A stretch of DNA of 64,000 bases from NCBI GenBank assembly GCA_964016885.1, contig OZ024748.1:31682001-31746000 (forward strand), in the 5' to 3' direction. The position numbers were made by a program, and so were the translations under genes. This document shows, piece after piece, positions 4,810 through 59,160 of this stretch. Within the stretch, counting starts at the first letter, position 1; each line of letters opens with the position of its first letter. The DNA comes from Eledone cirrhosa (Eukaryota). The notes below the pieces were generated by a model, which did not search any database, was not told the DNA's origin, and saw only the letters and a program-made list of their open reading frames with translations.

Positions 4810-6494
4810 GAAGTGAATGGCTGGTTCAACAAATTGAATAAGAAAAACAAAACAAAAATTTATTCAATTTGATATTGTCAGCTACTATTCTTCTATTTCG
4901 CCCTCACTTCTCAACAATGCTCTATCTTTCGCTTACAAATATTCAGACGTCACCACAGATGAACTTCACATCATTCTCAGCGCACGTAAAACCATCCTAG
5001 AGTTCAACAATGAATATTGGATCAGAGTTGATACCTCTAACAACTTTGACATCACAATGAGAGCATCCGATTCATCCCAATTGACAGATTTAATTGGTAT
5101 CTTTATTTTGAACTCTTTGAATCGGAAAATTCCTCAACTTCGGGGTGGAATTTATCGTGACGATGGACTCTTTACTATCTTAAATTGCAACATAGTTAAC
5201 CTTAATATTATAAAGAACAATATGCGTAATCTCTTTAACCAACATAACTTAAAAATTGAATTTGATAACAGCATCAAACTAGCTAATTTCTTGGATGTAT
5301 CTCTTAATCTTGACACTGGCCAATATTACCCTTACCATAAAAACAATGAGAACCTAAATTATGTTAATTTTAAATCTAACCACCCCACTAATATTAAGAA
5401 TACTATAGTTAGTAATATAGGAAAAAGAATATCCAACATATCATCTAATAAAAACATCTTTGATGCTAACGCCAATTACTATAATAACGCGCTCTTCTAA
5501 AGCCGGTTATCCTGATAAAATCAAGTATAGTAAAGAAACAAATTCTAGAAGATCTTACAGTAGAATAATTAATCATGATCATTCCAATAACTTTAATAAA
5601 AGACCTAGATACAAAAACATAATCTGTTATAATGCTCCTTTCTCCATCTCTATTAATAATAATATTCCTAAATTATTCTTTAGTGCCTTAAATAAATGCT
5701 TCCCTCCCTCACATATCTATAGTAAAATATTTAACAAACACACTATAACATTTTCCTATTCGACCTCCTCCAACATCTCCAACATTATCTCTAAACACAA
5801 CAATAAAATACTAAATACTAAATCTCTTCCTTCCAACACTGAATATCATAATAATAGTAATATTACTCCCGACGTCATTGTTAACTCTATGCTAATTTAT
5901 GCAAACCCAAATACAACGTCAAACGCAACTTCTTTGAATGTTCTTAATACCATTCTAAATCAAGAAACTATTATTCCTATCGTAAATAACTTCTCCAATC
6001 CAATTCCTTCTATAGATAACACTAGGTCACTTGTTAATAACTCTGTTAATTTCTCTAATCGCAATTGCAATTGCCCCGTTAAAAATAAATGTCCTCTCAA
6101 CAACCATTGTCTTGAAAAAAACTTAATCTACGAATGTAAAGTTATAACTGACACCAATTCCTTTACCTATTTTGGCTCCACTTCCACCTCCTTTAAAGCT
6201 CGTCTTTATAATCATCATTCGTCTTTTAAATACCAACTTAAAAGAACCAACACGGCACTCTCAGAACTCATATGGTCCTTGAAAGACAAAAATATTAATT
6301 ATAACATCTCTTGGAAGAATGTTTGTTCTGCTTCTCCATACTTGAATGGTTCTCTATCCAAGACATGTAATCTCTGTTTATGTGAGAAATTTACCATTAT
6401 ATATAATTTAGATTCGATAATAAATAGACGCACTGACTTGTTTTCTCTCTGCTTGCATAAATTCCACAGAACATTCCATAAAGTATACAGCTAA
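4810..6494 (+). pseudogene. PLE reverse transcriptase/GIY-YIG endonuclease, frameshifted, 5'-truncated
   Basis: ORF track 5057-5500 and 5460-6494; colinear with the uninterrupted 27623-29375 copy. Confidence 0.9.
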
Positions 6495-12259: not shown

Positions 12260-13110
12260 TCAGCCCTGTATGTCAAGTCCCTCCGTCCGTATGTCCCTGC
12301 GGATGGCGTTAGTGGTATATTCACTCAGGTGGGGGATTTTAAAGAAGCACCTGCTTTTATTTAAGTTTCTTGTGGGTGTCTGTCTATTGGGTCTGGGGTC
12401 TCTAATTCCGTTAATCAGTCGCTTGGGATATCCATTAGACTTGAGTAGATTACGGAATTGCGTGGTATGGGTGAGACCACCCATCGGGTCGCTGCATCTG
12501 TTAGTCATCCGTGTCAGTTCATTTAGGACATAGCCTCTCTTAGCGTTGTTGGGGAGGGCTGAGTTGTAATGCACAAATAAGTCCTTGCACGCTGCTTTGC
12601 GGTAGAAGGTGGTGTTTATGTCTCCTTCTTCCGAGATGTTGATACGGAAGTCGAGGAGGGCGAGTGACCCGTCTTCTCCTGGGTGTTCGATGGTGAAATC
12701 GACGTGATGGTCAGTATCGTTGAAGATTTGGTGAATTTCATTCGCCATCTCCCGGGAAGAAGTAAGTATCAGGATGTCATCAACGTATCTGGAGTAGAAG
12801 GCGACGGCGTTGGGTTGGCAGGTATTGAGTGCCTTGCGTTCCAGGTGGTCCATGTACGAGATCGCAAGTATGCCGGACAGACTAGAGCCCATAGGTAGCC
12901 CAGAGATTTGTTTGTACGTGTGGCCGATGAAATTGAAGAGTGCATTATCCACAACGAAGGAGAGGAGTTGGTGGATGTCCGTGTGTGTGAGTCCGAAGCA
13001 GTGTAAGTTAGATGCTCGGACTCGTTCGGTCAACAGGTCGACGGCTGGGGATGCTGGTACGGAGGTATAAAGGGCGACCACATCAAGACTGAAGGCATAA
13101 CCGTTGTCCT
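12260..13110 (-). pseudogene. PLE reverse transcriptase core and thumb (truncated)
   Basis: FSLDVVALYTSVP, YKQISGLPMGSSLS, YSRYVDDI, LLDFRI, FYRK. Confidence 0.92.
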
Positions 13111-13157
13111 TTCTGGTGTTGGGCGCCAGATGGTGTAGTCGCGATACGGGGGGCAGA

Positions 13158-13445
13158 TTGCCTACGCACCTATGTCGTATATAAGATTCAAGCGATAAAT
13201 GTAACAAGTTTTACATAGGTAGCACCATCCGACCCTTACATGTTCGTATCAAGGAACATATAAACACCAACGCATCTTCCTTCCGTAAACACATCCTTAA
13301 ATGCGGAAACCCACAGGGTAGACCCTTGGTCACAGTCCTAGCGACTGAACGCAGCATTGGATCCTTAAGGATAAAGGAAGCACTTGTTATTAAGAACCTC
13401 AGACCCCCACTTAACAACCGGGCTGAGAGAAATGAGCTGACATGA
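13158..13445 (+). pseudogene. PLE GIY-YIG endonuclease domain (1-nt frameshift; not in ORF track)
   Basis: Hand translation: CLRTYVVYKIQ/DKCNKFYIGSTIRPLHVRIKEH...LRIKEALVIKNLRPPLN. Confidence 0.85.
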
Positions 13446-27622: not shown

Positions 27623-29375
27623 TTAACTGTATACTTTGTGAAAAGTTCTATGGAATTTATGCAGGCAGATGGAAAACAAATCCGAGCGTCTATTTATTAT
27701 GGATTCTAGGTTAGAGATAATGGTAAATTTTTCATTTAGGCAGAGATTACAGATTTTAGATAGAGAACTGTTCAAGTACGAGGATGCAGAAGAAATCTTT
27801 TTCCAAAAGATGTTATATTTAATGTTTTTGTCTTTTAAGGACCATATGAGTTCTGAGAGAGCAGTGTTAGTTCTTTTAAGTTTGTATTTGAAAGATGAAT
27901 GATGATTATAGAGACGAGCTTTAAAAGAGGTGGAAGTGGAGCCAAAATAGGTGAAGGAGTTGGTGCTAGTTATAATTTTACATTCATAAATTAAGTTTTT
28001 ATCGAGGCAATGGTTGTTGAGAGGACATTTATTTTTAATGCGGCAGTTGCAATTAGAGAGATTATTAATGAGTGATCTAGTGTTATCTATAGAAGGAATT
28101 GGATTGGAGAAGTTGTTTGCGATAGGAATAATAGGAATAATAGTTTCTTGATTTAGAGTTGGATTATGAACATTTAGCGAAGTTGTGTTTGACGTTGCAT
28201 TTGGGTTTACAGAAGTTAGCCTAGGGTTTACAATGACGTCAGGAGTACTATTATTGTTATTATGAGATTCAATATTGGAAGGAAGAGATTTAGTATTTAA
28301 TATTTTGTTGTTGTGTTTAGAAATGATGTTGGAAATATTGGAGGATGTAGAATACGAAAATTTAATGGTGTGTTTGTTAAATATTTTACTATAGATATGT
28401 GAGGGAGGGAAGCATTTATTTAAGGCACTAAAAAATAATTTAGGAATATTGTTATTAATAGAGATGGAGAAAGGAGCATTATACCAGATTATGTTTTTGT
28501 ATCTAGGTCTTTTATTAAAATTATTGGAATGGTTATGATTAAATATTCTACTGTAAGTTTTCCTAGAATTTGTTTCTTTATTATATTTGATTTTATCTGG
28601 ATAGCCGGCTTTAGAAAGTGCGTTATTATAGTAATTGGCGTTAGCATCAAAGATGTTTTTATTAGAAGATATGTTAGATATTCTATTTCCAATATTATTA
28701 ACTATAGCATTCTTGATATTGGTAGGATGGTTAGATTTAAAGTTAACATAATTAAGATTCTCATTGTTTTTATGGTAAGGGTAATATAGGCCAGTGTCAA
28801 GATTAAGAGATACATCCAAGAAATTAGCTAGTTTGGTACTATTATCAAATTCAATTTTTAGGTTACGTTGGTTAAAGAGATTACGTATATTGTTCTTAAT
28901 AATATTAAGTTTAACTATATTGCAATTTAGGATAGTAAAGAGTCCATCGTCACGATAAATTCCACCGCGAAGTTGAGGAATTTTCCGACTCAAAGAGTTC
29001 AAAATGAAGATACCAATTAAATCAGTCAATTGGGATGAATCGGATGCTCCCATTGTGATGTCGAAGTTGTTAGAGGTATCGGCTCTGGTCCAATATTCGT
29101 TGTTGAACTCTAGGATGGTTTTACGTGCGGTGAGGATGATGTGAAGTTCATCTGTGGTGATGTCAGAATATTTAAGTGCGAAAGATAGAGCATTATTGAG
29201 AAGTGAAGGCGAAATGGAGGAATAGTAGCTGGCAATATCGAATTGAATAAATTTTAGTTTGTTTTTATTATCCAATTTGTTGAACCAGCCAATCACTTCA
29301 GAAGTACCAAACCATAAATTTAGGTTTAAAGAAGAGCAATTAGAACTAACCTGTGGGATAATCCTATCCAAGATG
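27623..29375 (-). CDS. PLE RT + GIY-YIG polyprotein, uninterrupted but 5'-truncated at the inversion junction
   Basis: FDIASYYSSI, DITMGASDSSQLTDL, GIYRDDG, FLDV, CNC..CPL..C linker, LIYECK..YFGST, CNLC..EK, CLH. The first ~25 aa of the ORF-track protein come from the inverted arm. Confidence 0.9.
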
Positions 29376-30358
29376 GCTATCCAGATAAAATCAAATATAA
29401 TAAAGAAACAAATTCTAGGAAAACTTACAGTAGAATATTTAATCATAACCATTCCAATAATTTTAATAAAAGACCTAGATACAAAAACATAATCTGGTAT
29501 AATGCTCCTTTCTCCATCTCTATTAATAACAATATTCCTAAATTATTTTTTAGTGCCTTAAATAAATGCTTCCCTCCCTCACATATCTATAGTAAAATAT
29601 TTAACAAACACACCATTAAATTTTCGTATTCTACATCCTCCAATATTTCCAACATCATTTCTAAACACAACAACAAAATATTAAATACTAAATCTCTTCC
29701 TTCCAATATTGAATCTCATAATAACAATAATAGTACTCCTGACGTCATTGTAAACCCTAGGCTAACTTCTGTAAACCCAAATGCAACGTCAAACACAACT
29801 TCGCTAAATGTTCATAATCCAACTCTAAATCAAGAAACTATTATTCCTATTATTCCTATCGCAAACAACTTCTCCAATCCAATTCCTTCTATAGATAACA
29901 CTAGATCACTCATTAATAATCTCTCTAATTGCAACTGCCGCATTAAAAATAAATGTCCTCTCAACAACCATTGCCTCGATAAAAACTTAATTTATGCATG
30001 TAAAATTATAACTAGCACCAACTCCTTCACCTATTTTGGCTCCACTTCCACCTCTTTTAAAGCTCGTCTCTATAATCATCATTCATCTTTCAAATACAAA
30101 CTTAAAAGAACTAACACTGCTCTCTCAGAACTCATATGGTCCTTAAAAGACAAAAACATTAAATATAACATCTTTTGGAAAAAGATTTCTTCTGCATCCT
30201 CGTACTTGAACAGTTCTCTATCTAAAATCTGTAATCTCTGCCTAAATGAAAAATTTACCATTATCTCTAACCTAGAATCCATAATAAATAGACGCTCGGA
30301 TTTGTTTTCCATCTGCCTGCATAAATTCCATAGAACTTTTCACAAAGTATACAGTTAA
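29375..30358 (+). pseudogene. inverted duplicate of the linker + GIY-YIG coding region
   Basis: GYPDKIKY...FHKVYS* read on the + strand. Confidence 0.88.
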
Positions 30359-33130: not shown

Positions 33131-35838
33131 CGATATTAAACAAATGGAAACTATATTTATAAAACCATATTTATTTCGTTATATATATTTCAGGGATATC
33201 ATATTAAAAATATGGTATGCCTTCCTCAGACAAAATACAATACATAAGCTGTTTTATAAATAATTTTTGACATACCTTATAAATAATGCAACTTCCATTT
33301 AAAAAGTTGATTTGGTACTGAAACTGTTATGACAGTTATATAGAAAGAAAAACGAAGATGAGAAGAAGAAGATGAAGAGATGTATGTAAATAAAAAAAAG
33401 AAGAAGGTGTAGAGATGTATGTAAAGAACAACAACAGAGCGAGATAGAGAGACAACGAGATATGGGAGAGAGAAATACATTGAGGAAGTGAAAAAATATA
33501 GTAGGCAGCTTTTGGACAGATGATCAACGTATATGTGAGGGAAGGGATACAGTTAAACTACCCGACACATAAATCACGTCCAGTGTATAGGAGAAAAAAG
33601 AAAGAAAGATTATATATTTAAAATATATTAAAAATATATTATGTCTCATCCATTTGAATTATCAATTTTTATGAATTAGGTATTATAATGTAAATATCAG
33701 TATTCATGAATGAGACACATATCCATAATGTGTGAAAAAATGACCACATGCTTAGTTTAAAAATTCTTAGGTCTATAAGCAAAATCTGAGATTAAAACTT
33801 CAAACATAAGTATATATGCATTCTCATGAAAAAAGAAAAAGAGAAAAGAGAAGGTTATCTCAAATTCAAGTTGATAAATATAGACATACATGTGAACCTA
33901 CGTGATATGCTCCACAAATTCTTATATTTCATGAAAAACTTCATTGCGTTACAAAAGATTCCACCCTACATATATTTACATACATATATACATATATATA
34001 GACATAAAATATATAAGATATACATTAACATTTAAAATAACATTCCAGCCTCACTTGCATGATTATCGATCAAGCATAGAGTAGACAACAGATATCAATA
34101 TTAAAAATTAAAAACGCCAAGAATATCTTCGTCACTCCACAGAGTATCTAGGGACGCAAGAGAACATAGTATGCCACGCATATCGGTCACATAAAATCAG
34201 AATCAAAAGCAAACAAAACCAAAATTGTTCACCAAGCCTTATTTAGCAGAAATCATTCAAAACTTATTCTACAAATGCTCTTATATTTATTATAGAAGTT
34301 TATCCAGCTTAAAAATTTATTCAAAAGATTGGGAACAACGCCAATATTAGGGTAGTTTATTTAATCTCATTAATTATATATTCATGCAGAAAGGTTTTAA
34401 AAAAAGAATTGAAGGAATCGAAAGATTTATCGCCAAGTTTCATAAATAGTTAAATACCTTAAGTAAATATACTACATTTTATACTACATTTTAAATTTAT
34501 ATTTATATTTAAAAGTTGAGTTCAATCTATGTCTGCAGCAGCTGAATAAATTGGTTCGTAAATTAAGGGAATTTTTAGATTTTAGTATAAAGAATATCTC
34601 CTCCGCGCAGAGGTCACATGTCTCAGAAGAGGAATTAAAAGGAATCCCTTTTGAGACTATATTCCATACCATCGAATATCCAACTTTATCATGTTTAAGT
34701 TGCCAGAGTAACCCTGACAGCGATGTTGAAGATTATTATAGCGAAGTTTAAATTCTGTCGAAGTGGAACCAACATAATTAAAAGAATTTAAATCAGTTTT
34801 AACATTACAGTTGTATATTATATTTTTAACTAAGCAATTGTTATTTAGCGGACATTTAGATCTATCTCTACAGTTACAGTTTTTTACTTGAATATTGTTT
34901 AGGCTATTTTCGGTATTTTGGCTAGGTTTTAGATTCCTATTATTTATTCTATTAATATTTTGTGCTAAATTTTTGGTGGACGAGTACGTTAATTTTATAG
35001 TATGTCTATTGAAAATTGAGTGATACTTATGTGTTCTAGGGAAGCGTTTGTCAAGAGCATTAAAAAATAGTTTAGCGATGTGGGTTTTAATGTTTAGTGA
35101 GAAAGGAGGGGCAAACCATATTATATTTCTAGTTCTATTTCTTTTCTGGTTTTTGAAATTATTGTAGTGCTTTCTATTATAGTTGTTAAAGTTGTTACTG
35201 TAATTAAAATTGTTGTTATTTTTAATATATTTTTAATATATTTTTAATATATTTTAAATATATCATCTTTCTTTCTTTTTTCTCCTATACACTGGACGTG
35301 ATTTATGTGTCGGCTAGTTTAACTGTATCCCTTCCCTCACATATACGTTGATCATCTGTCCAAAAGCTGCCTACTATATTTTTTCACTTCCTCAATGTAT
35401 TTCTCTCTCCCATATCTCGTTGTCTCTCTATCTCGCTCTGTTGTTTTTCTTTACATACATCTCTTCACCTTCTTCTTTTTTTTATTTACATACATCTCTT
35501 CATCTTCTTCTTCTCATCTTCGTTTTTCTTTCTATATAACTGTCATAACAGTTTCAGTACCAAATCAACTTTTTAAATGGAAGTTGCATTATTTATAAGG
35601 TATGTCAAAAATTATTTATAAAACAGCTTATGTATTGTATTTTGTCTGAGGAAGGCATACCATATTTTTAATATGATATCCCTGAAATATATATATAACG
35701 AAATAAATATGGTTTTATAAATATAGTTTCCATTTGTTTAATATCGTAAACCTACTCCAGAAATTGTTGAGTGCTTTTATATCAGTTATAAAATATTTAC
35801 TCGTTATAACCCAACAATCTTAAATAAAACTTTTGCAT
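33131..35838 (-). mobile_element. Naiad-like PLE family B: GIY-YIG fragment 34484-~35225, inverted pLTRs 33131-33630 / 35245-35747, tail to 35838
   Basis: IIWFAPPFS..CNCRDRSKCPLNNNC..YVGSTSTEF..CDLCAEE..CCRH; HHR 35638-35705 (+) and antisense 33172-33240. Confidence 0.9.
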
Positions 35839-39251: not shown

Positions 39252-40037
39252 ATGAGTTGTAACAACAACGAAACTAGTTCAATATTCCTTGTCTGGCTTT
39301 CTGGAGAATAGATGAAAGGTGTTTCATCAAAAACCAGTATGACTCTAAAAACCGGTTTGTCTGTGTGTTTACATACAGAATAGCTGGACACTCACAGTAA
39401 AGTGACCAGTGAAAAACTCGGTACATCTACATATGTATACGTGTGTGTATTCATATGCATACTAGTATTTCAGTATATATATGTGGATGTACATTTTTAA
39501 CTTAATTGTTTAAGCGTCAGTCATACAAAAGTGAGTTACAAACGAAACGAAATTTAATTTCGTTTCGTTATTTGTTTTTATCGTCTCCGTTAAACCGGTA
39601 CGTACTATGCAAATTAGTCTGCCCACTTCTAATTTTCATAGAAAAAGCATATAACGATATGTGCTTTTACGATTCTCTAGAAAGGCCGGAAGATAGGTAA
39701 ATATTGCTGATGAGTTGTAACAACAATGAAACTAGTTCAATATTCCTTGTCTGGCTTTCTGGAGAATAGAGGAAAGGTGTTTCCTAAAAAACCAGTATGA
39801 CTCTAAAAACCGGTTTGTCTGTGGGTTTACATACAGAATAGCTGGACACTCACAGTAAAGTGACCAGTGAAAAACTCGGTACATCTACATATGTATACGT
39901 GTGTGTATTCATATGCATACTAGTATTTCAGTATACATATGTGGATGTACATTTTTAACTTAATTGTTTAAGCGTCAGTCATACAAAAGTGAGTTACAAA
40001 CGAAACGAAATTTAATTTCGTTTCGTTATTTGTTTTT
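39252..40037 (+). mobile_element. retrozyme-like family R2, ~1.7 tandem units of 458 bp
   Basis: 39252-39578 is repeated at 39710-40037; minimal HHR; no credible ORF. Confidence 0.85.
39700..39744 (+). ncRNA. minimal type I hammerhead ribozyme (R2)
   Basis: AATATTG-CTGATGA-GTTG TAACAA CAAT-GAAA-CTAG-TT-CAATATT; the upstream truncated copy has CAAC-GAAA. Confidence 0.9.
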
Positions 40038-40109: not shown

Positions 40110-40140
<31 letters not shown>

Positions 40141-40169
40141 TGTATATATATACATTGTATATATATATG

Positions 40170-40328
40170 TATATGGACACACTAGAAGAGGAAGACCAAG
40201 GTTAACGTATGTTGATGCCCTAAGGACAGACACTGGTCTATTGGAGATGCAGGACATGGCAGCGATAATGGGGGACAGAGACCGCTGGAGAGAACTGGTC
40301 CATGGATCTCGGGAATTTTACCCGCCTT

Positions 40329-40368
<40 letters not shown>

Positions 40369-40526
40369 AAGGCGGGTAAAATTCCCGAGATCCATGGACC
40401 AGTTCTCTCCAGCGGTCTCTGTCCCTCATTATCGCTGCCATGTCCTGCATCTCCAACAGACCAGTGTCTGTCCTTAGGGCATCAACATACGTTAACCTTG
40501 GTCTTCCTCTTCTAGTGTGTCCATAT
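40170..40526. mobile_element. two RTE-like 3' fragments tail-to-tail around a (TA)n spacer
   Basis: 40170-40330 (+) and 40367-40526 (-), both with the same ends as 32686-32845. Confidence 0.85.
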
Positions 40527-40535
40527 ACATATATA

Positions 40536-40575
<40 letters not shown>

Positions 40576-40578
<3 letters not shown>

Positions 40579-41132
40579 CAAAATGGGGAGAAGAATACTG
40601 CAGGTTGCACATGGATAACATGTAATAAAATAAGTCCCTCATCAGTGATTTGCCGACGATCATAGATATTTCATTGCATTAAAAATCATATACCTCACGT
40701 CGGTGCAATAATAACTAAATTAAGTTATTAGGACAATTAAAACGCGTAAAGCGAGTGAGACAAGATAACAACAAAGAGGAGAGATAACCGTAGAAGGAAG
40801 GGAACAAGCTTCATAGTTATTCTGTTAGCATAAGCTAGGTGAATATATGAGCGCTTAGAAAAAAGACCTTTCGGGAAGGAATCCAAATGTGAGAAAGAGA
40901 GAAAATGTTTTCGTCACGAACGGGGTGAAGTGAGAAGAGGTGAAACAGTGAGTGAGTGAGTGGAAGTGTGAGGAAGAGTTAACTGACATGACACAGGGGG
41001 CGAAAGAAAGTAGGAGAAACAGAGAGAATGGGGGAGCAGTAAGAGAGAGAGAGAGAAAAACAGAATCGCAGTTTGGGTAAATATATGTAATAACATGGGG
41101 AGAAAAATACTGCTGGTAGCACATGGATAACA
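40576..41132 (-). mobile_element. non-coding ~510 bp unit with terminal direct repeat and structured RNA motif (40634-40734)
   Basis: 40583-40622 resembles 41095-41132; the motif is shared with 45033-45134. Confidence 0.6.
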
Positions 41133-41164
41133 TATATATAAATATATATATATTGTATATATAT

Positions 41165-41230
<66 letters not shown>

Positions 41231-41329
41231 ATATATATATATTTTATATATATATATTTTATATATTGTATATATATATATTGTATATATATATATAGAT
41301 ATATATAGATATATTGTATATATATATAT

Positions 41330-41377
<48 letters not shown>

Positions 41378-41402
41378 CTGTATATATATATTGTATATAT
41401 AT

Positions 41403-41444
<42 letters not shown>

Positions 41445-41978
41445 ATATATATATATTGTATATATATATATATTGTATATATATATATTGTATATATATA
41501 TATTGTATATATATATATTGTATATATATATATTGTATATATATATATATTGTGTATATATATATATTGTATATATATATATTGTATATATATATATATT
41601 GTGTATATATATATATTGTATATATATATATATATATCGTATATATATATATTGTATATATATATATATATTGTATATATATATTGTATATATATATATA
41701 TATTTTATATATATATATATATTGTATATATATATATATATATTCTATTTATATATATATATACATATTGTACATATATATATATATATTGTATATATAT
41801 ATATATTGTATACATGTAATATATTGTGTATATATATATATATATATATTGTATATATATATTGTGTATATATATATATATATTGTATATATATATATAT
41901 ATTGTATATATATATATATTGTGTATATATATATATATTGTGTATATATATATATATATATTGTATATATATATATAT

Positions 41979-42009
<31 letters not shown>

Positions 42010-42204
42010 TGTATATATATATATTGTGTATATATATATATATATATATTGTGTATATATATATATATATTGTATATATATATATATTATGTATATATAT
42101 ATATATATATATATTGTATATATATATATTGTGTATATATATATATTGTATATATATATATATATATATATTGTGTATATATATATATATATATATATAT
42201 TGTA

Positions 42205-42280
<76 letters not shown>

Positions 42281-42328
42281 ATACATATATTTATATATAT
42301 AAATATATATAAATATATTGTGGATATT

Positions 42329-42361
<33 letters not shown>

Positions 42362-42497
42362 TAGACAGTGAGTTTTTTTTACAAAATGAAAAATAGCCGA
42401 GGTGTCCTACACGAGTGAATGTATAAAGAAAAAGAGATGAAATCGAAAATGCAACTGGAGTCTTATTTTTTTTTAAAATATATATATTTATTTGGTT

Positions 42498-42535
42498 CCT
42501 TTACCGGTTTCGCAGTTCTTCTGCTTTTCAAAAGG
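42498..42535 (-). ncRNA. 38-nt minimal type I hammerhead ribozyme, U3-A8 variant (mutated copy 44237-44274 +)
   Basis: Minus strand: CCTT-TTGAAAA-GCAG AAGAA CTGC-GAAA-CCGG-TA-AAGG. Confidence 0.82.
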
Positions 42536-42908
42536 TGAGTTGAGATGGAGGGTCTGTGGTTTTTCTCACATCTGGTTGGTCTCTGAATGTTACTTGTTTT
42601 ATATGGAAAAAGTGGCCCGAAATGCCAGGTTTTTCGAGAAGTAATTTGATTGGTTTGTCAATAATTATAATAAATTTCGCGCCAGTTCGCGTTACAATAG
42701 TTCTTCAAATAAGAGGGGGGATTGTCACAGGTTTCTTTTTCATATATGAGTGTTTGAATTTCTTTTTACTTGAAAAAAGGGGGCTCACGAAGGCTTTTTT
42801 TTGGTTGGTTATAAATGAAATTACGTGAACAAGTTTTCATTACATTTTTGTGCCCTTATTTGGAGATCCATTCTGTAGCCTTTTTAGAGAATTTTATGAT
42901 AAGTGAAA

Positions 42909-43089
42909 GATAATTGTTTCTACGTTAGGTACAAGGCCAGCAAATTACCCAGTGCATTACTGGTACTTTATTTTATCGACCCCGTAAGGATGAATGGCAA
43001 AGTTAACATCGGCGGGATTTGAACTCAGATCGTAAAGGGACGTAACTATGCTGGAAAGCATGGCGTCCGACCCTCTACCGATACTGCCG
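42909..43089 (-). mobile_element. tRNA-derived SINE
   Basis: Reverse complement of the 20819-21010 family. Confidence 0.85.
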
Positions 43090-43660
43090 AAAGATAATGG
43101 TCAAGAGAAAGAGATGGGAGAATTGTTCTGATTCAGTGAATATGGTTAGTTCGCTGGGGTGTCAGAATTCAGATTTTCTATTGAATAAAGAAAGTAAAGA
43201 TATGTATGTTTATTTGTGTGCTTGTGTGTGTGTGCGTGTGTGTGTGTGTTGTGTGTGTGTGTTGTGTGTGTGTGTGTTTCAAGTTCTTTACTTTAAAAAA
43301 GGTGGCTCACGAAGGCTTTTTTTTAATAAACGTGATTTGATTGGTTATAAATGAAATTTGGCTGTCACGTGAACAAGATTTCATTACATTTTTGCACCCT
43401 TATTTGGAAAACTATTCTGTAGCCTTTATAGAGAATGTTATGAGAATGTAATAAGGGTGCAAAAATGTAATGAAAACTTGTTCACGTGACAGCCAAATTT
43501 CATTTATAACCAATCAAATCACGTTTATTAAAAAAAAGCCTTTCTTTACTTTCTTTATTCAATAGAAAATCTGAATTCTGACACCCCAGCGAACTAACCA
43601 TATTCACTGAATCAGAACAATTTTCCCATCCCTTTCTCTTCACCATTATCTTTCACTTAT

Positions 43661-43852
43661 CAGGGTGGTGGATTGGCAGTATCGGTAGAGGGTCGGACGC
43701 AATGCTTTCCAGCATAGTTAAGTCCCTTTACGATCTGAGTTCAAATCCCGCCGAGGTTGACTTTGCCTTTCATCCTTACGAGGTCGATAAAATAAAGTAC
43801 CAGTAATGCACTGGGTATTTGCTGGCCTTGTGCCTAAATTAGAAACAATTAT
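43661..43852 (+). mobile_element. tRNA-derived SINE
   Basis: A box TGGCAGTATCGG, B box GAGTTCAAATCC. Confidence 0.85.
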
Positions 43853-44421
43853 CTTTCACATATCATAAAATTCTCTAAAAAGGCAACAGAATGGATTTTC
43901 AAATAAGGGCACAAAAATTTAATGAAAACTTGTTCAGGTGACAGCCATAATTTCATTTATAACCAACCCAAAAAAATCCTTCGTGAGCCCCCTTTTTTCA
44001 AGTAAAAAGAAATTCAAACACTCATATATGAAAAGAAAACCTTTGACAAACCCCCATCTTATTTGAAGAACTATTGTAACGCGAACTGGCGCGAAATTTA
44101 TTATAATTATTGACAAACCAATCAAATTACTTCTCGAATAAACCTGGCATTTCGAGCCACTTTTTCCATATAAAACAAGTAACATTCAGAGACCAACCAG
44201 ATGTGAGAAAAACCACAGACCCTCCATCTCAACTCACCTTTCGAAAAGCAGGAGAACTGCAAAACCGGTAAAGGAACCAAATAAATATATATATTTAAAA
44301 AAAAAATAAGACTTCAGTTGCATTTTCGATTTCATCTCCTTTTCTTTATATATGTATATATACAATATATATATAATATATATATATATACAGTATATAT
44401 ATATATATACAATATATATGT

Positions 44422-44462
<41 letters not shown>

Positions 44463-44496
44463 TATATATACAATATATGTATATATATATATACAT

Positions 44497-44533
<37 letters not shown>

Positions 44534-44831
44534 TATATATACGATATATATATATATATACAATATATATATAGAGCATATATATATACAATATATATAT
44601 ACAACATATATATATATATATATATTACATAGATATATATACAATATATATATATATATATATATACATTATATATATATATATATACAATATATATATA
44701 TATATATACAATATATATATACATATATATACAATATATATATATATATATATATATACAATATATATATATATATATATACAATATATATATATATATA
44801 CAATATATATATATATACAATATATATATAT

Positions 44832-44879
<48 letters not shown>

Positions 44880-44893
44880 ATATAAATATATAT

Positions 44894-44969
<76 letters not shown>

Positions 44970-44983
44970 ATATATATATATAT

Positions 44984-45021
<38 letters not shown>

Positions 45022-45026
<5 letters not shown>

Positions 45027-45660
45027 AAGTGAGTCCTTCATCAGTGACCCTCCAACCGTCCTCGGCATTTTATCGCTTTAAGGGCCATATGCCTCAGGTT
45101 GGTGCGAACAACGGCTAAAAAAAGTCGTTGGGACACGTAAATAAAGGGGGACGCTAGAGTAACAACAAAAAGGGTTTAAGCAACGGAAAGTGAGTAGAAA
45201 TAGACAAGTCCCAGATCTCTATGAATATAAACTCTGTGAAATCGTGAACAAGAGACGAAAGACCATCGAACCTGGTAGAAATGTGAGCAAGGAAAGAATT
45301 TCGCCCAAGTTTGACGGGGGGAAAAAAGAGAGAGAGAGAGAAAGAAGAAGAAGAAGAAGAAGAAGAAGAAGAAGAAGAAGAAGAAGAAGAAGAAGAAGAA
45401 GAAGAAGAAGAAGAAGATAAGGAGGTCTGGTCTGCGAATTCGGTAAACGCAAGTTTTGTGAAGTCACAGACGAAAGAGAGAGAGAAAAAAAATTCCATAC
45501 CAGCTCGGTCAAGACTGCGCGAGAAAAGAATTACACACAGGTCAAACTTGAAGGAGGAGGAGGAAAGAGGAGGAGGAGAGGTAGTGACAGAGAATGAGTG
45601 AGTGAAAGTTGAGGAGAGGGTAACAGAGAGGGTAACAGAGAGGGAGACTGAGAGGGAGAC
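45022..45660 (-). mobile_element. non-coding element related to 40576-41132, with structured motif 45033-45134 and (GAA)n 45341-45417
   Basis: Colinear ~101-nt motif; pyrimidine-rich minus strand. Confidence 0.55.
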
Positions 45661-47558: not shown

Positions 47559-50500
47559 ATTAAATAAATGGAAAACTATATTTATAAAACCATATTTATT
47601 TCATTATATATATTTCGGGGATATCATATTAACAATATGCTATGCCTTCATCAGACAAAATACAATATAAACAGTTTTATAGATAAATATATTCGACATA
47701 CCGTAATAAACATCAACTTCATTTGAAGAGGTTTACGCTAGCAGTGAAAATACAGAGAGAAAGAAAGAGAGAAAGAAAAGAGGGAAAAAAAAAGAAAGAA
47801 AGACAAGACGAAGAAAAGGAAGAAAAAGAAGAAAAAGAAAAAGAAGAAATGCATGGGACAAAATAGAGAGATGGAAAAATAGATAAAGCGAAGAGCTTCA
47901 TGTAAAGAGACAGAAAGAGATATATATATATATATAGAGAGAGAGGAAATAGAGATAGATACATATATATATAGAGAAAATTAGGTAGTGGGAGGTCATT
48001 TTGAGTAAGTGTATCAATGATACATTTATTTATTTATTTATATATTTATTTAGCTCAAGTATTAATGTAAGGGAGATATATAGAGAGATATAGAGAGATA
48101 TAGAGAGAGAAAAAAAAATTTAAAAATAGCCAGACATATTCGAGGCGTAGAAAACCCCATGTTTTAATGTATTAGTATTTATAAAACTTACACTATATTG
48201 TAAATATCAGTATTCCTGAATGAAACAAGTATTCACAATGTGTGAAAATTCATTATCTTATGTTTAGTTTTAAAAAATTCACATGTTTATGTGACAGCTA
48301 CAAACATCAATGTGAATCCAACTGATTCACTCCGCAAACTCTAAATTACCGGAAAACATTCTCAATGTGGTATAAAAATTTGAGCGTATTATTATTCTTG
48401 CGATTACTCTACAAGATTATCTATCAAGCAGAAATAGAGAGCAGATTTCAATATACTAATCGAAAATATATATTATATTATAAACAAAGATAACAATAAT
48501 AATAATAATAAGTAAAAATATACAAAAAATATAGAATAGAAAACTAAAAAAAAAAAAAATTACGAAAGAATATTACATAATAAAAATATTGCATATTAAA
48601 AATACTACGTATTAAAAAATATTACGTATTAAAAATTTACATATAAAAATATTAAAAATAATTAAAAAATAAAATAAAAAATAAAAATATTATAGAATAC
48701 TACAATACTAAAAGAATAAAAATAAAAATAAAAATAAAAATAAAAATAAAAATAAAAATAAAAATAAAAATGAAAATAAAAAATAAACCACAAAGAACAA
48801 CCCTTCAAAGTTAATTGACAATATATTGCCAAGTTCATTACAAGACAAAGCCAAAAATTATCTATCAAATCACATCTAGCAAAGAATATCGCAAAAAGAT
48901 TATGATGTCCAATAATGTCTACATATGTTCCTATATTTAATATAGAAGTTTATCTAGTGTAAGGTTAATTCAAAAAAATTTGGAGCATCGGCTTTTAGGG
49001 TAGCTTAATTTTTCATGAGGAATGTTTAGATAAAAATAAAAATAAATAAAATAAAATAAACAATAAAAAGAGTAAAAAGAGGGAATCAAGGATTTAGGAA
49101 TCAAAAGATTTATCGGCTAGTTCTCATATAAATATAAATCAAACTAAATATACTACATTTTAAATTTAAATTTATATTTAAACGTTGAGTTTAATCTATG
49201 TTTGCAACAACTGAATAAATTTGTCCGTAGGTTAAGGGAATTTTTAGATTTTAGTATAAAGAATATCTCCTCTGCGCAGAGGTCACATGTCTCAGAGGAT
49301 GAATTAAAAGGAATCCCTCTTGAGACTATATTCCAAGCCGTCGAATATCTAACGTTATCTAGCTTAAGTTGCCAGAGTACGCCTGATAGTGCCGTTGAAG
49401 ATTTTTTGCTTGGATCTGTGAAAGAATTCTTGTGGTTATTATAGCGAAGTTTAAATTCCGTCGATGTGGAACCGACGTAGTTAAAAGAATTAGAGTCAGT
49501 ATTAACATTACAATTGTATACTATATTTTTAACTAAGCAGTTGTTATTTAACGGACATTTAGATCTATCTCTACAGTTACATTTGTTAACTTGTATATTA
49601 TTTATGCTATTATCAGTAGGTTTTAAGTTCCTATTATTTATTCTATTAATATTTTGTGCTAAATTTTTGGTGGATGAGTAGGTTAATTTAATTGTATGCC
49701 TATTGAAGATTGAGTGATACCTATGTGTTCTAGGGAAGCGATTATCAAGAGCTTTGAAAAATAATTTAGCGATGTGGGTTTTAATGTTTAGTGAGAAAGG
49801 GGGGCAAACCAAATTATGTTCCTAGTTCTATTTCTTTTTTGTCCTTTGGAATTATTGTAATGCTTTCTATTATAGTTGTTAATGTTGTTGCCGTAATTAA
49901 AAAAGTTGTTACTTTGTTTAGTTTGTCTATCATTATCTATGTACACAATCTTATCAGCATACCCTGCCCTAGCTAGTGCATCATTATAGTATTGGGCCTT
50001 TTCGTCAAAAATCTTTCTATTCGACGAGATCCTAGAGATACGTTTTTGGACTGAGTTTACTATAGTGTTTTTGACAGATCTGGGGTGGTTAGAGTTAAAG
50101 TTGACATAGTTTAAGTTTTCATTCAACTTGTGAAAAGGATGTGTTGAGATTTAATGTTATATCTAGGAAATTGACTATTCTATGGTTGTTCTCAATTTCT
50201 ATTTTAAGGTTAAAGTAATTAAAAAATTTTGTAATTTGTTTACATTTTCTATTTAGTTCAGGGTTATTATTATTAATAAGTAAAAGCATGTCATCCCTAT
50301 ATAAACCTCCGGTAGTACCTGGTATTTTCCTATGTAGCGAATTGATTAAAAATAAGCCCACAAGGTCAGTTACCTGAGCTGAGTCGGAAGATCCCATAGT
50401 TATGTCAAAATTGCTATCTCTATCTGCTCTGGTCCATAATTTGTCATTACATAATTTGTCATTACATAATTTGTCATTACATGAAGCTCTTCGCTTTATC

Positions 50501-56328: not shown

Positions 56329-56370
56329 GTATACATATATATATCTATTGTATATATATATATATATTGT

Positions 56371-59160
56371 GTTGCGTAACTATCTTTCTCCCATTACAGA
56401 GACTAATTAGTTGGAGTGAAAATTTTAGTAAGTAAGTTAATTTTTTATTTTTAAAATGTTCTTATTTTACGTCTTTCACATAATTTTTCTGCATCCCCCT
56501 GCATTGAACCACCTAGGTACTATGACATAACTTGTGTATTTGCTAGCATTAGTGTACATCTGTACGCATATGTTGGTAAATATACTAATTCTCTATATTT
56601 ATCTCCAAATTATTTATTTCTTGGGCAAAGTTGCCAAATCCACTACTAATTCATTGTAGTAGTAATAAGCTCTTGTCATTATACCATGCCACTCCTTCTG
56701 ACTAGCCTCAGTGTCACGTGATTAATTCTTTAGAATCTACCACTTGACCAGAGACAGTGAACTTTTTCAGTGCTATGGAATTCAGTCCCCGCTAGCTGTT
56801 CCATCCACCGAATTATTATTTTTATATGAGTCCCTAGTGTCCGCGCATTGCCTGGAGACTTAGCTGAGAATAGACTCCCTGATGACGTAATGAATTCTCG
56901 ATGGTTACGTTGCGTAACTATCTTTATCCCATTACAGAAACTAATTGGTTGTGGTGAAAATTTTAGTAAGAAAGTTAATTTTTAATTTTTTTAATTTTCT
57001 TATTTTACGTCTTTCATATAATTGTTCTGCATCCTCCTGCATTGTACCACCTAGGTACTATGACATAACTTGTGTATTTTCTAGCATTAGTGTACATCTG
57101 TATGCATATGTTGGTAAATATACTAATTCTCTATATTTATCTCCAAATAATTTATTCCTTGAGCAAACTTGCCAAATCCACTACTAAGTCATTGTATTAG
57201 TAGTAAGCTCTTGTCATACCATCCCACCCCTTCTGACTAGCCTCAGTGTCACGTGATTGATTCTTTAGAAACTACCACTTGACCAGAGACTGTGAACTTT
57301 TTCAGTGCTATGGAATTCAGTCGCCACTAGCTGTTCCATCCACCGAATTATTATTTTTATATGAGTCCCTAGTGTCCGCGCATTGCCTGGAGACTTAGCT
57401 GAGAATAGACTCCCTGATGACGTAATGAATTCTCGATGCTTACATTGCGTAACTATCTTTATCCCATTACAGAAACTAAATAGTTGGAGTGAAAATGTTA
57501 GTAAGTTAACTTTTAATTTTTAAAATTTTCTTATTTTACGTCTTTCATATAATTGTTCTGCATCCTCCTGCATTGAACCACCTAGGTACTATGACATAAC
57601 TTGTGTATTTGCTAGCATTAGTGTACATCTGTACGCATATGTTGGTAAATATACTAATTCTCTATATTTATCTCCAAATTATTTATTTCTTGAGCAAACT
57701 TACCAAATCCACTACTAAGTCATTGTAGTAGTAGTAGTAAGCTCTTGTCATTATACCATGCCACTCCTTCTGACTAGCCTCAGTGTTACGTGATTAATTC
57801 TTTAGAATCTACCACTTGACCAGAGACAGTGAACTTTTTCAGTGCTATGGAATTCAGTCCCCGCTAGCTGTTCCATCCACCGAATTATTATTTTTATATG
57901 AGTCCCTAGTGTCCGCGCATTGCCTGGAGACTTAACTGAGAATAGACTCCCTGATGACGTAATTAATTCTCGATGGTTACATTGCGTAACTATCTTTATC
58001 CCATTACAGAAACTAATTGGTTGGGGTGAAAATTTTAGTAAGAGAGTTAATTTTTAATTTTTAAAATTTTCTTATTTTACGTCTTTCATATAATTGTTCT
58101 GAATCCTCCTGCATTGAACCACCTAGGTACTATGACATAACTTGTGTATTTTCTAGCATTAGTGTACATCTGTATGCATATGTTGGTAAATATACTAATT
58201 CTCTATATTTATCTCCAAATTATTTATTTCTTGATCAAACTTGCCAAATCCACTACTAAGTCATTGTATTAGTAGTAAGCTCTTGTCATTATACCATCCC
58301 ACTCCTTCTGACTAGCCTCAGTGTCACGTGATTGATTCTTTAGAATCTACCACTTGACCAGAGACTGTGAACTTTTTCAGTGCTATGGAATTCAGTCCCC
58401 ACTAGCTGTTCCATCCACCGAATTATTATTTTTATATGAGTCCCTAGTGTCCGCGCATTGCCTGGAGACTTAGCTGAGAATAGACTCCCTGATGACGTAA
58501 TGAATTCTCGATGCTTACATTGCGTAACTATCTTTATCCCATTACAGAAACTAAATAGTTGGAGTGAAAATGTTAGTAAGATAATTTTTAATTTTTAAAA
58601 TTTTCTTATTTTACGTCTTTCATATAATTGTTCTGCATCCTCCTGCATTGAACCACCTAGGTACTATGACATAACTTGTGTATTTGCTAGCATTAGTGTA
58701 CATCTGTACGCATATGTTGGTAAATATACTAATTCTCTATATTTATCTCCAAATTATTTATTTCTTGAGCAAACTTGCCAAATCCACTACTAAGTCATTG
58801 TAGTAGTAGTAGTAAGCTCTTGTCATTATACCATCCCACTCCTTCTGACTAGCGTCAGTGTCACGTGATTGATTCTTTAGAATCTACCACTTGACCAGAG
58901 ACAGTGAACTTTTTCAGTGCTATGGAATTCAGTCCCCGCTAGCTGTTCCATCCACCGAATTATTATTTTTATATGAGTCCCTAGTGTCCGCGCATTGCCT
59001 GGAGACTTAGCTGAGAATAGACTCCCTGATGACGTAATGAATTCTCGATGGTTACATTGCGTAACTGTCTTTATCTCATTACAGAAACTAATTAGTTGGA
59101 GTGAAAATTTTAGTAAGTTAATTTTTAATTTTTAAAATTTTCTTATTTTACGTCTTTCAT
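56371..59160 (+). mobile_element. retrozyme-like family R3 tandem array, ~5.2 units of 535-538 bp, one HHR per unit
   Basis: CTGATGA cores at 56879, 57414, 57951, 58489, 59026; ACTCC/GGAGT stem I, GTAATG/CATTAC stem II, AACTAATTAGTT stem III. Confidence 0.92.

Follow-up and report, generated by a model that had tools for sequence, protein, structure and literature searches.

The described systems closest to the elements considered here are a permuted hammerhead from environmental RNA, the retrozymes and the Naiad elements. Eckert et al. 2023 defined the type SGC hammerhead, a non-circular permutation of the core blocks, known only from soil and spruce metatranscriptomes, and its representatives (HRIMA-1 and variants) cleave in vitro, with rates of 0.007-0.19 per minute, at the site that corresponds; in the available parts of that paper, non-circular permutations are described as unknown in the genomes of known organisms, save one weak bacterial GCS case (PMC10085705). 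Retrozymes are defined by type I hammerheads (PMC7229834; bioRxiv 10.64898/2026.07.22.740005). Naiads, described by Craig et al. 2021, prefer (TA)n targets, occur as tandem and inverted insertions and are without canonical hammerheads; eight Naiad families contain an 'HHR_half_core' with GAAA 35-50 nucleotides (nt) off on either side, and the function of hammerheads in Penelope-like elements is called unclear (PMC8557442). Here we analyse a related RNA motif in a 64,000-nt stretch of the Eledone cirrhosa genome (contig OZ024748.1, positions 31,682,001 to 31,746,000; hereafter the window), where two (TA)n-embedded elements carry it. Comparison of the copies makes it very probable that the motif is a complete hammerhead core in S-G-C order, likely self-cleaving; the non-coding tandem retroelements that carry it likely arose from a Naiad 3′ end.

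Two motif copies and their fold

An earlier note on this DNA had pointed out two diverged, colinear copies of a double-pseudoknot motif, and their coordinates, minus-strand orientation and lengths (101 and 102 nt) are as it gave them. A profile search found no third motif copy in the window. The observation is confirmed as real rather than a product of chance: a descriptor of block order plus stems I and III gave 0 matches when the 51 kb of non-TA sequence in the window was resampled 100 times under a Markov model. The elements and motifs are as follows.

40577..41141, minus strand: element copy 1, one non-coding unit of ~515 nt and a short partial unit, (TA)n on both sides
40634..40734, minus strand: type-SGC hammerhead motif of copy 1, every core position intact
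45023..45660, minus strand: element copy 2, a 5′-truncated unit of a tandem family of 690-850 nt, (TA)n on both sides
45033..45134, minus strand: type-SGC motif of copy 2, predicted cut 45088/45087, G12 (45071) read as A

The anatomy is given in copy 1 coordinates, with pair counts from the 28-copy alignment described below and core labels in hammerhead position numbering.

40731..40734, minus strand: splint strand a (GUCC), partner 40634-40637; outer pair GC in 22 of 28 copies and AU in 5 of 28
40709..40730, minus strand: hairpin b, 7 base pairs (bp) with a U-rich loop, an arm of the four-way junction; 5 of 7 pairs double-changed
40704..40708, minus strand: splint strand c, partner 40674-40678 (pseudoknot; outer stem II); one pair is CG in 22 and UA in 4
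40698..40703, minus strand: 5′ strand of stem d (stem III extension), partner 40653-40658; 5 of 6 pairs double-changed
40683..40694, minus strand: block S, with the stem III 3′ strand (40690-40694), H17 (40689) and the stem I 5′ strand (40683-40688)
Between 40689 and 40688, minus strand: predicted cut of copy 1, following H17
40665..40678, minus strand: block G, with a stem II strand (40674-40678), N11.1 (40673), GAAA (40669-40672) and the stem III 5′ strand (40665-40668)
40634..40651, minus strand: block C, with the stem I 3′ strand (40646-40651), CUGAUGA (40639-40645), N10.1 (40638) and GGAC (40634-40637)

Read 5′ to 3′, splint a, hairpin b, splint c, stem d and block S are followed by a linker of 4-5 nt, block G, the returning strand of stem d, and block C (stem I strand, CUGANGA, N10.1, a′). 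Stem III lies within a hairpin lengthened by stem d, and stem I is a pseudoknot between the strand after the predicted cut and the strand before CUGAUGA. Direct pairing of the stem II strands is confined to the single 10.1-11.1 pair; these strands pair instead with the upstream strand (a/a′ and c/c′), between whose two parts sits hairpin b. The resulting four-way junction is fully paired in copy 1 and has a single unpaired base in copy 2. All partners fall within 102 nt, and both the short spacings and the lengths of the peripheral loops are conserved, the latter strongly.

Each helix named in the earlier note is present and is backed by double changes across subfamilies. Its upstream pseudoknot likewise exists, with the correction that the last base is actually hammerhead position 11.1, whose partner is the base after CUGAUGA. 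Of its (G/A)AAA, GAAA stands as the family reading and the AAAA of copy 2 is a private change. The predicted cut it placed after GGUAUA/GGCAUA corresponds to cleavage after H17 and is supported as the probable site by the sequence. The (TA)n junction on the 3′ side lies 57 nt past the motif end in copy 1 and 10 nt in copy 2, and the window's ordinary type I cores occupy the same place in their own elements, in keeping with the idea of a shared ribozyme slot.

Core conservation and covariation

Because the first patterns demanded the core, the search was repeated with the core positions as N. This core-free pattern gave 13,277 genomic matches against 0 for its reversed control, and the first 100 listed, all of the main clade, were counted by eye. 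All 11 invariant positions are kept in 95 of them, and the other five each deviate at a different position. The conserved positions are those that the hammerhead core requires (C3 U4 G5 A6, G8 A9, G12 A13 A14 and A15.1-U16.1), and the positions that vary are those free in hammerheads: N7 has 91 U and 9 C, and H17 has 85 A, 15 C and no G. Stems I and III stand on either side of the core, as a hammerhead requires, with 5 of 6 and 2 of 5 pairs double-changed, and 10.1-11.1 is paired in 27 of 28 aligned copies (A-U 11, U-A 8, G-U 7, G-C 1). Copies with C11.1 number 1,086, and 15 of the first 100 listed have A after A9; the subfamilies with C11.1 and this A pair only if the A is a looped-out extra base and the next G is 10.1. 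An extra base after A9, there a U, is also part of the published SGC descriptor (PMC10085705). The change of G12 to A in copy 2 is private, its near-identical relatives reading GAAA, and copy 2 is therefore predicted to be inactive.

Since conservation obeys the hammerhead core rules at each position, the description of the motif as a topologically rewired hammerhead is borne out, and a new ribozyme class or a purely reverse transcriptase (RT)-recruiting RNA is disfavoured. The order S-G-C places it outside hammerhead types I-III, whose circular orders are CGS, GSC and SCG, as had been proposed. Hepatitis delta virus (HDV)-like, twister and pistol folds were dropped from consideration, the hammerhead core already accounting for the conserved positions. 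No Rfam family reached its gathering score in the window, and no Rfam ribozyme model matched at E up to 10 over 40500-45300; this blank carries little weight because the 17 ordinary type I cores of the window escape Rfam as well. The motif strand is the minus strand, where alone the three blocks with their pairings and the 10.1-11.1 pair are found; G-U states on that strand sit in stems I, III and 10.1-11.1. Folding free energy is unremarkable on either strand (z -0.2 to -1.8).

The larger alignment called for by the earlier note shows covariation throughout. It was drawn from 317 distinct copies in 137 arrays, of which 306 are in fixed register and 11 were left out for indels; 20 real copies, one per subfamily, were picked by eye, and 8 second-clade copies brought the total to 28. 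In these, 96.6% of cells are paired and 20 of 33 pairs are double-changed, spread over all seven helices. None of 500 shuffles scored as high, and slid partners pair in 26-47%. A tree-aware null was run because the shuffle and slide controls ignore kinship: substitution counts per branch were placed at random on a tree of the upstream bodies, for 20 copies and 29 pairs, with helix a omitted and the F5 body short. The observed values (97.4% paired and 15 of 29 pairs double-changed) were never reached in two sets of 5,000 runs, whose maxima were 90.9%/10 and 93.6%/9. RNAalifold recovers helices a, b, d and III unaided and closes the motif locally through helix a. Between the two window families the motifs are 70% alike, as against 51-52% for the bodies.

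A genome-wide family and its probable link to Naiad

The host genome (3.0 Gb) is rich in (TA)n. A DNA search of it with copy 1 gave no candidates; an 18-mer pattern from copy 1 has 5,666 genomic matches, and the three core blocks in order have 14,771, each with 0 in the reversed control. About 2,000 further sites belong to a second clade, in which U follows CUGAYGA, and to a much more distant family, a figure that rests on 1,006 reverse-strand sites (each listed once there) with controls of 8 and 59. Near-identical relatives of copy 2 lie in tandem arrays; 40 of 1,021 candidates were scored and gave 41 matches. In the distant family (loci L025, L217, L409 and L416, outside the counted alignment) the block order is kept, stems I, III, c and d are different and the hairpin is longer; its members at L409:1499-1611 (minus), L416, L025:433-542 and L217 lie in tandem units of ~804 nt with a long hairpin b and a stem III of 7-8 bp. 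At L370:1383-1480 (minus) and L222:176-249 (plus) lie decayed members of a further SGC family in which N7 is A.

Units are non-coding, ~445-850 nt long and inserted in (TA)n, with one ribozyme motif each near the 3′ end; tandem arrangement is seen in 75 of 170 contexts, and no unit-borne RT-like frame appears among the open-frame rows listed. The small elements are young, with copies 99% identical. An array of ~515-nt units spanning ~90 kb at G000:C1:81.55-81.64 Mb (L065-L090), in which some units have a common change at stem I 2.1, is a local amplification after insertion. Among 85 copies followed by (TA)n, the 3′ end lies within 131 nt of the predicted cut in 72 and beyond that in 13; 26 end 64-66 nt and 44 end 98-121 nt past it, mostly where the element sequence itself has C and then ATAT. 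The 5′ ends are scattered and often inverted. In a count of fossil cut sites, 11 of 171 rows of 5′ breakpoints lie at -4 to 0, of which ~9 are compatible with the cut; ~4 rows elsewhere are double-counted, the interval -95 to -90 holds 8, and there is TA microhomology at the site.

Pieces of the motif occur in contigs from sequencing runs under five organism labels; in runs X7 and X8 the stretch is supported by no more than 1-3 low-depth contigs. Viral contigs gave 48 pattern matches, of which 4 passed a loose stem filter and none has the full fold, and among 80 of 118 metagenome stretches listed, 2 passed the loose filter and neither has the splint.

A comparison with the available Naiad consensuses (PMC8557442), made by eye, suggests a link to Naiad. 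The 3′ ends of Naiad_Ovul, which has a half core, and of Naiad_Obim show S-G-C order with perfect stems III (5 bp) and I (6 bp) of other sequence. Stems c and d are present, and the T-rich loop of the hairpin and the internal loops of 3 and 6 nt agree with those of the present motif. Naiad_Esco, likewise a half-core family, also reads S-G-C, with stems I, III and d. C-S-G order is found in nematode Naiad consensuses; it is clean, with a direct stem II of 5 bp, in Naiad_Parc (half core), in the family preceding it and in three more passages of the Naiad supplement, one directly before Naiad_Hcon. C-S-G and S-G-C are circular permutations of one another. No motif was seen at the 3′ ends of Naiad_Omin and Naiad_Adux, both listed as incomplete, or of Naiad-1_Skow. 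In the Eledone genome, a pattern for the published octopus Naiad motif has 0 matches. Naiad-like RT remnants are represented by 12 RT-motif sites, of which the one at L376 is not Naiad-like, and by 115 protein matches, and internal stops interrupt the best of these matches; at L370 a decayed motif copy lies 2.6 kb downstream of a Naiad-like remnant, separated from it by (TA)n runs and other insertions. A (TA)n target and ragged or inverted 5′ ends are not diagnostic of Naiad origin because Hydra elements have them too.

A Hydra-type Penelope element is the likely enzyme donor because Hydra too targets (TA)n. Penelope open reading frames (ORFs) resembling Hydra-1_Obim by eye lie in the window at 27626-29542 (minus), 29330-30355 (plus), 4838-6491 (plus), 49156-49821 (minus) and 34660-35232 (minus), those at 27.6-30.4 kb being inverted relative to each other; Pfam gave no match for the four of these ORFs that were scanned. 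The window's Penelope ORFs are less decayed than the Naiad remnants, and type I cores lie downstream of them. These resemblances to published elements would by themselves suggest a cephalopod host.

A simple descriptor counts 17 ordinary type I cores in the window. Cores with a palindromic stem III, the dimer type, have C3 at 4742 (-), 8218 (+), 10291 (-), 10461 (+), 26382 (-), 31598 (+), 33229 (-), 35646 (+), 46586 (-), 47654 (-) and 50726 (+), and several lie 1-2 kb downstream of Hydra-like Penelope ORFs. Tandem units of ~535 nt with a type I core each, at 56367-59158 (plus) and 24281 (minus), belong to an ordinary retrozyme family in (TA)n, and an element at 39254-40036 (plus) has a minimal type I core at 39707 and a partial tandem repeat. 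The window also has a 316-residue open frame with an RVT_1 match at 12263-13210 (minus), flanked by inverted CA/TG-rich repeats, and short and long inverted-repeat insertions at 40140-40537 and 42364-44365, centred on (TA)n or internal breakpoints, as is typical of these TA-targeted elements.

Alternative readings, proposed cycle and comparison with known systems

Several observations weigh against a self-cleaving S-G-C hammerhead of Naiad descent. Direct stem II is at most 1 bp throughout the main clade, and a tested hammerhead with such a junction was not found in print. Stems I and III are weak in copy 1, and for families 2 and 5 the fold of lowest energy is a different structure. Two small subfamilies put C opposite A at 11.1/10.1 unless the extra base is looped out, one pair of hairpin b is A-C in 9 of 28 copies, G-U occupies 30 cells overall vs 17 for A-C, and helix a is double-changed at a single pair. 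The 5′ breakpoints show no clear enrichment at the cut. The Naiad resemblance was judged by eye rather than computed, and no intact Naiad remnant was found in the genome, nor a motif attached to any of 30 remnants, though the small elements are young.

The minimal stem II might mean that the motif is a hammerhead-derived fold that no longer cleaves and is kept as an RNA handle for a Penelope RT or endonuclease. The motif adjoins the priming site, its peripheral loop lengths are strongly conserved, and the doubt about hammerhead function in Penelope-like elements is a published one (PMC8557442). However, preservation of precisely the 11 positions of the catalytic core, alongside variation at N7 and H17 of the kind seen in active hammerheads, would not be anticipated of a protein handle, and the core rule holds across families whose stems are unrelated; we regard this explanation as unlikely. 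The weak helices of copy 1 could instead reflect cleavage that takes place only between units or molecules, in C-S-G order across neighbouring units, or that needs a protein or partner RNA. The C-S-G order of nematode Naiads equals S-G-C on a circle, and the window's type I cores are mostly of the dimer type. Such an arrangement seems quite unlikely here, as every partner is inside 102 nt with short spacings conserved and RNAalifold closes the motif locally through helix a.

A further alternative is that the heptamer resembles a hammerhead by chance and that the motif is a new ribozyme class or another double-pseudoknot RNA, perhaps of the plus strand. The lack of an Rfam match, the equal stability of plus-strand folds and the A-C cells on the minus strand would be in keeping with this. 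Against it, all three hammerhead blocks, their pairings and the 10.1-11.1 pair are on the minus strand only, the G-U states of that strand fall in stems I, III and 10.1-11.1, and its polarity agrees with that of the type I cores, which makes this alternative very improbable.

If the motif is a self-cleaving S-G-C hammerhead, each unit of a tandem transcript would undergo one cut, following UA or UC, and a host ligase would close the monomers into circles, as happens with known retrozymes. An endonuclease/RT of Penelope type acting in trans would nick (TA)n, priming would occur at an AUAU site that lies 64-121 nt beyond the cut, and copying would proceed round the circular template, yielding arrays whose 3′ ends are fixed and whose 5′ ends are ragged or inverted. 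More broadly, we lean somewhat towards a scheme in which Naiads carry permuted hammerheads, C-S-G in nematodes and S-G-C in cephalopods, and in which an active four-way-junction S-G-C form, at ~17,000 copies, resides on circular-RNA retrozymes that outlive their Naiad parent and ride Hydra-type enzymes.

Non-circular permutations were the last hammerhead forms to be discovered, and this one is abundant in an animal genome, with a stem II architecture beyond the reach of published descriptors. It provides a direct candidate answer to a puzzle already in print, that of Naiads reported to be without canonical hammerheads and to have unexplained half cores. If the half cores are permuted hammerheads, the ribozyme would be general to endonuclease-bearing Penelope elements, censuses of retrozymes based on type I would overlook whole families, and a retroelement reservoir would be available for comparison with type-SGC viroid-like RNAs.

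The earlier note had called the motif unrecognised, which does not apply to its block order, already published as type SGC (PMC10085705), and does apply to its split stem II, its presence in an animal genome and its link to Naiad elements, all new in the literature found. No published type-SGC-like ribozyme in an animal genome or a Naiad was found in that literature, in which subscription papers are thinly covered, and the available parts of PMC13725137 and PMC10162972 contain nothing on permuted hammerheads in animal genomes or Naiads.

With type SGC (PMC10085705) the motif has in common the S-G-C order, the full core, stems I and III, a short linker from S to G and an optional base after A9. 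The form of Eckert et al. has a direct stem II of 2-6 bp and a C-G closing pair, whereas here 1 bp opens into a four-way junction; the motif fails their descriptor because the latter needs a direct stem II and CGAAA. The alignments of SGC variants in that paper may bear on the rarity of the junction. The motif also differs from that type in its upstream splint and hairpin, in the extension of stem III by stem d and in its animal host. No helix linking the distal ends of stem I and stem II, a feature of type SGC there, was found in the motif, whose helices a, c and d tie the parts differently. Non-LTR (long terminal repeat) retrozymes share with these elements non-coding tandem units, a single ribozyme each, thousands of copies, low GC and Penelope-like partners; their hammerhead is of type I (Cervera and de la Pena 2020, PMC7229834; Li et al. 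2026), while here it is of type SGC, with its closest motif in Naiad. Naiad itself encodes an endonuclease and RT whereas the element here is non-coding (PMC8557442), and what the two have in common is tandem and inverted insertion, the targeting of (TA)n and, for the cephalopod Naiad consensuses, the 3′-terminal fold as judged by eye.

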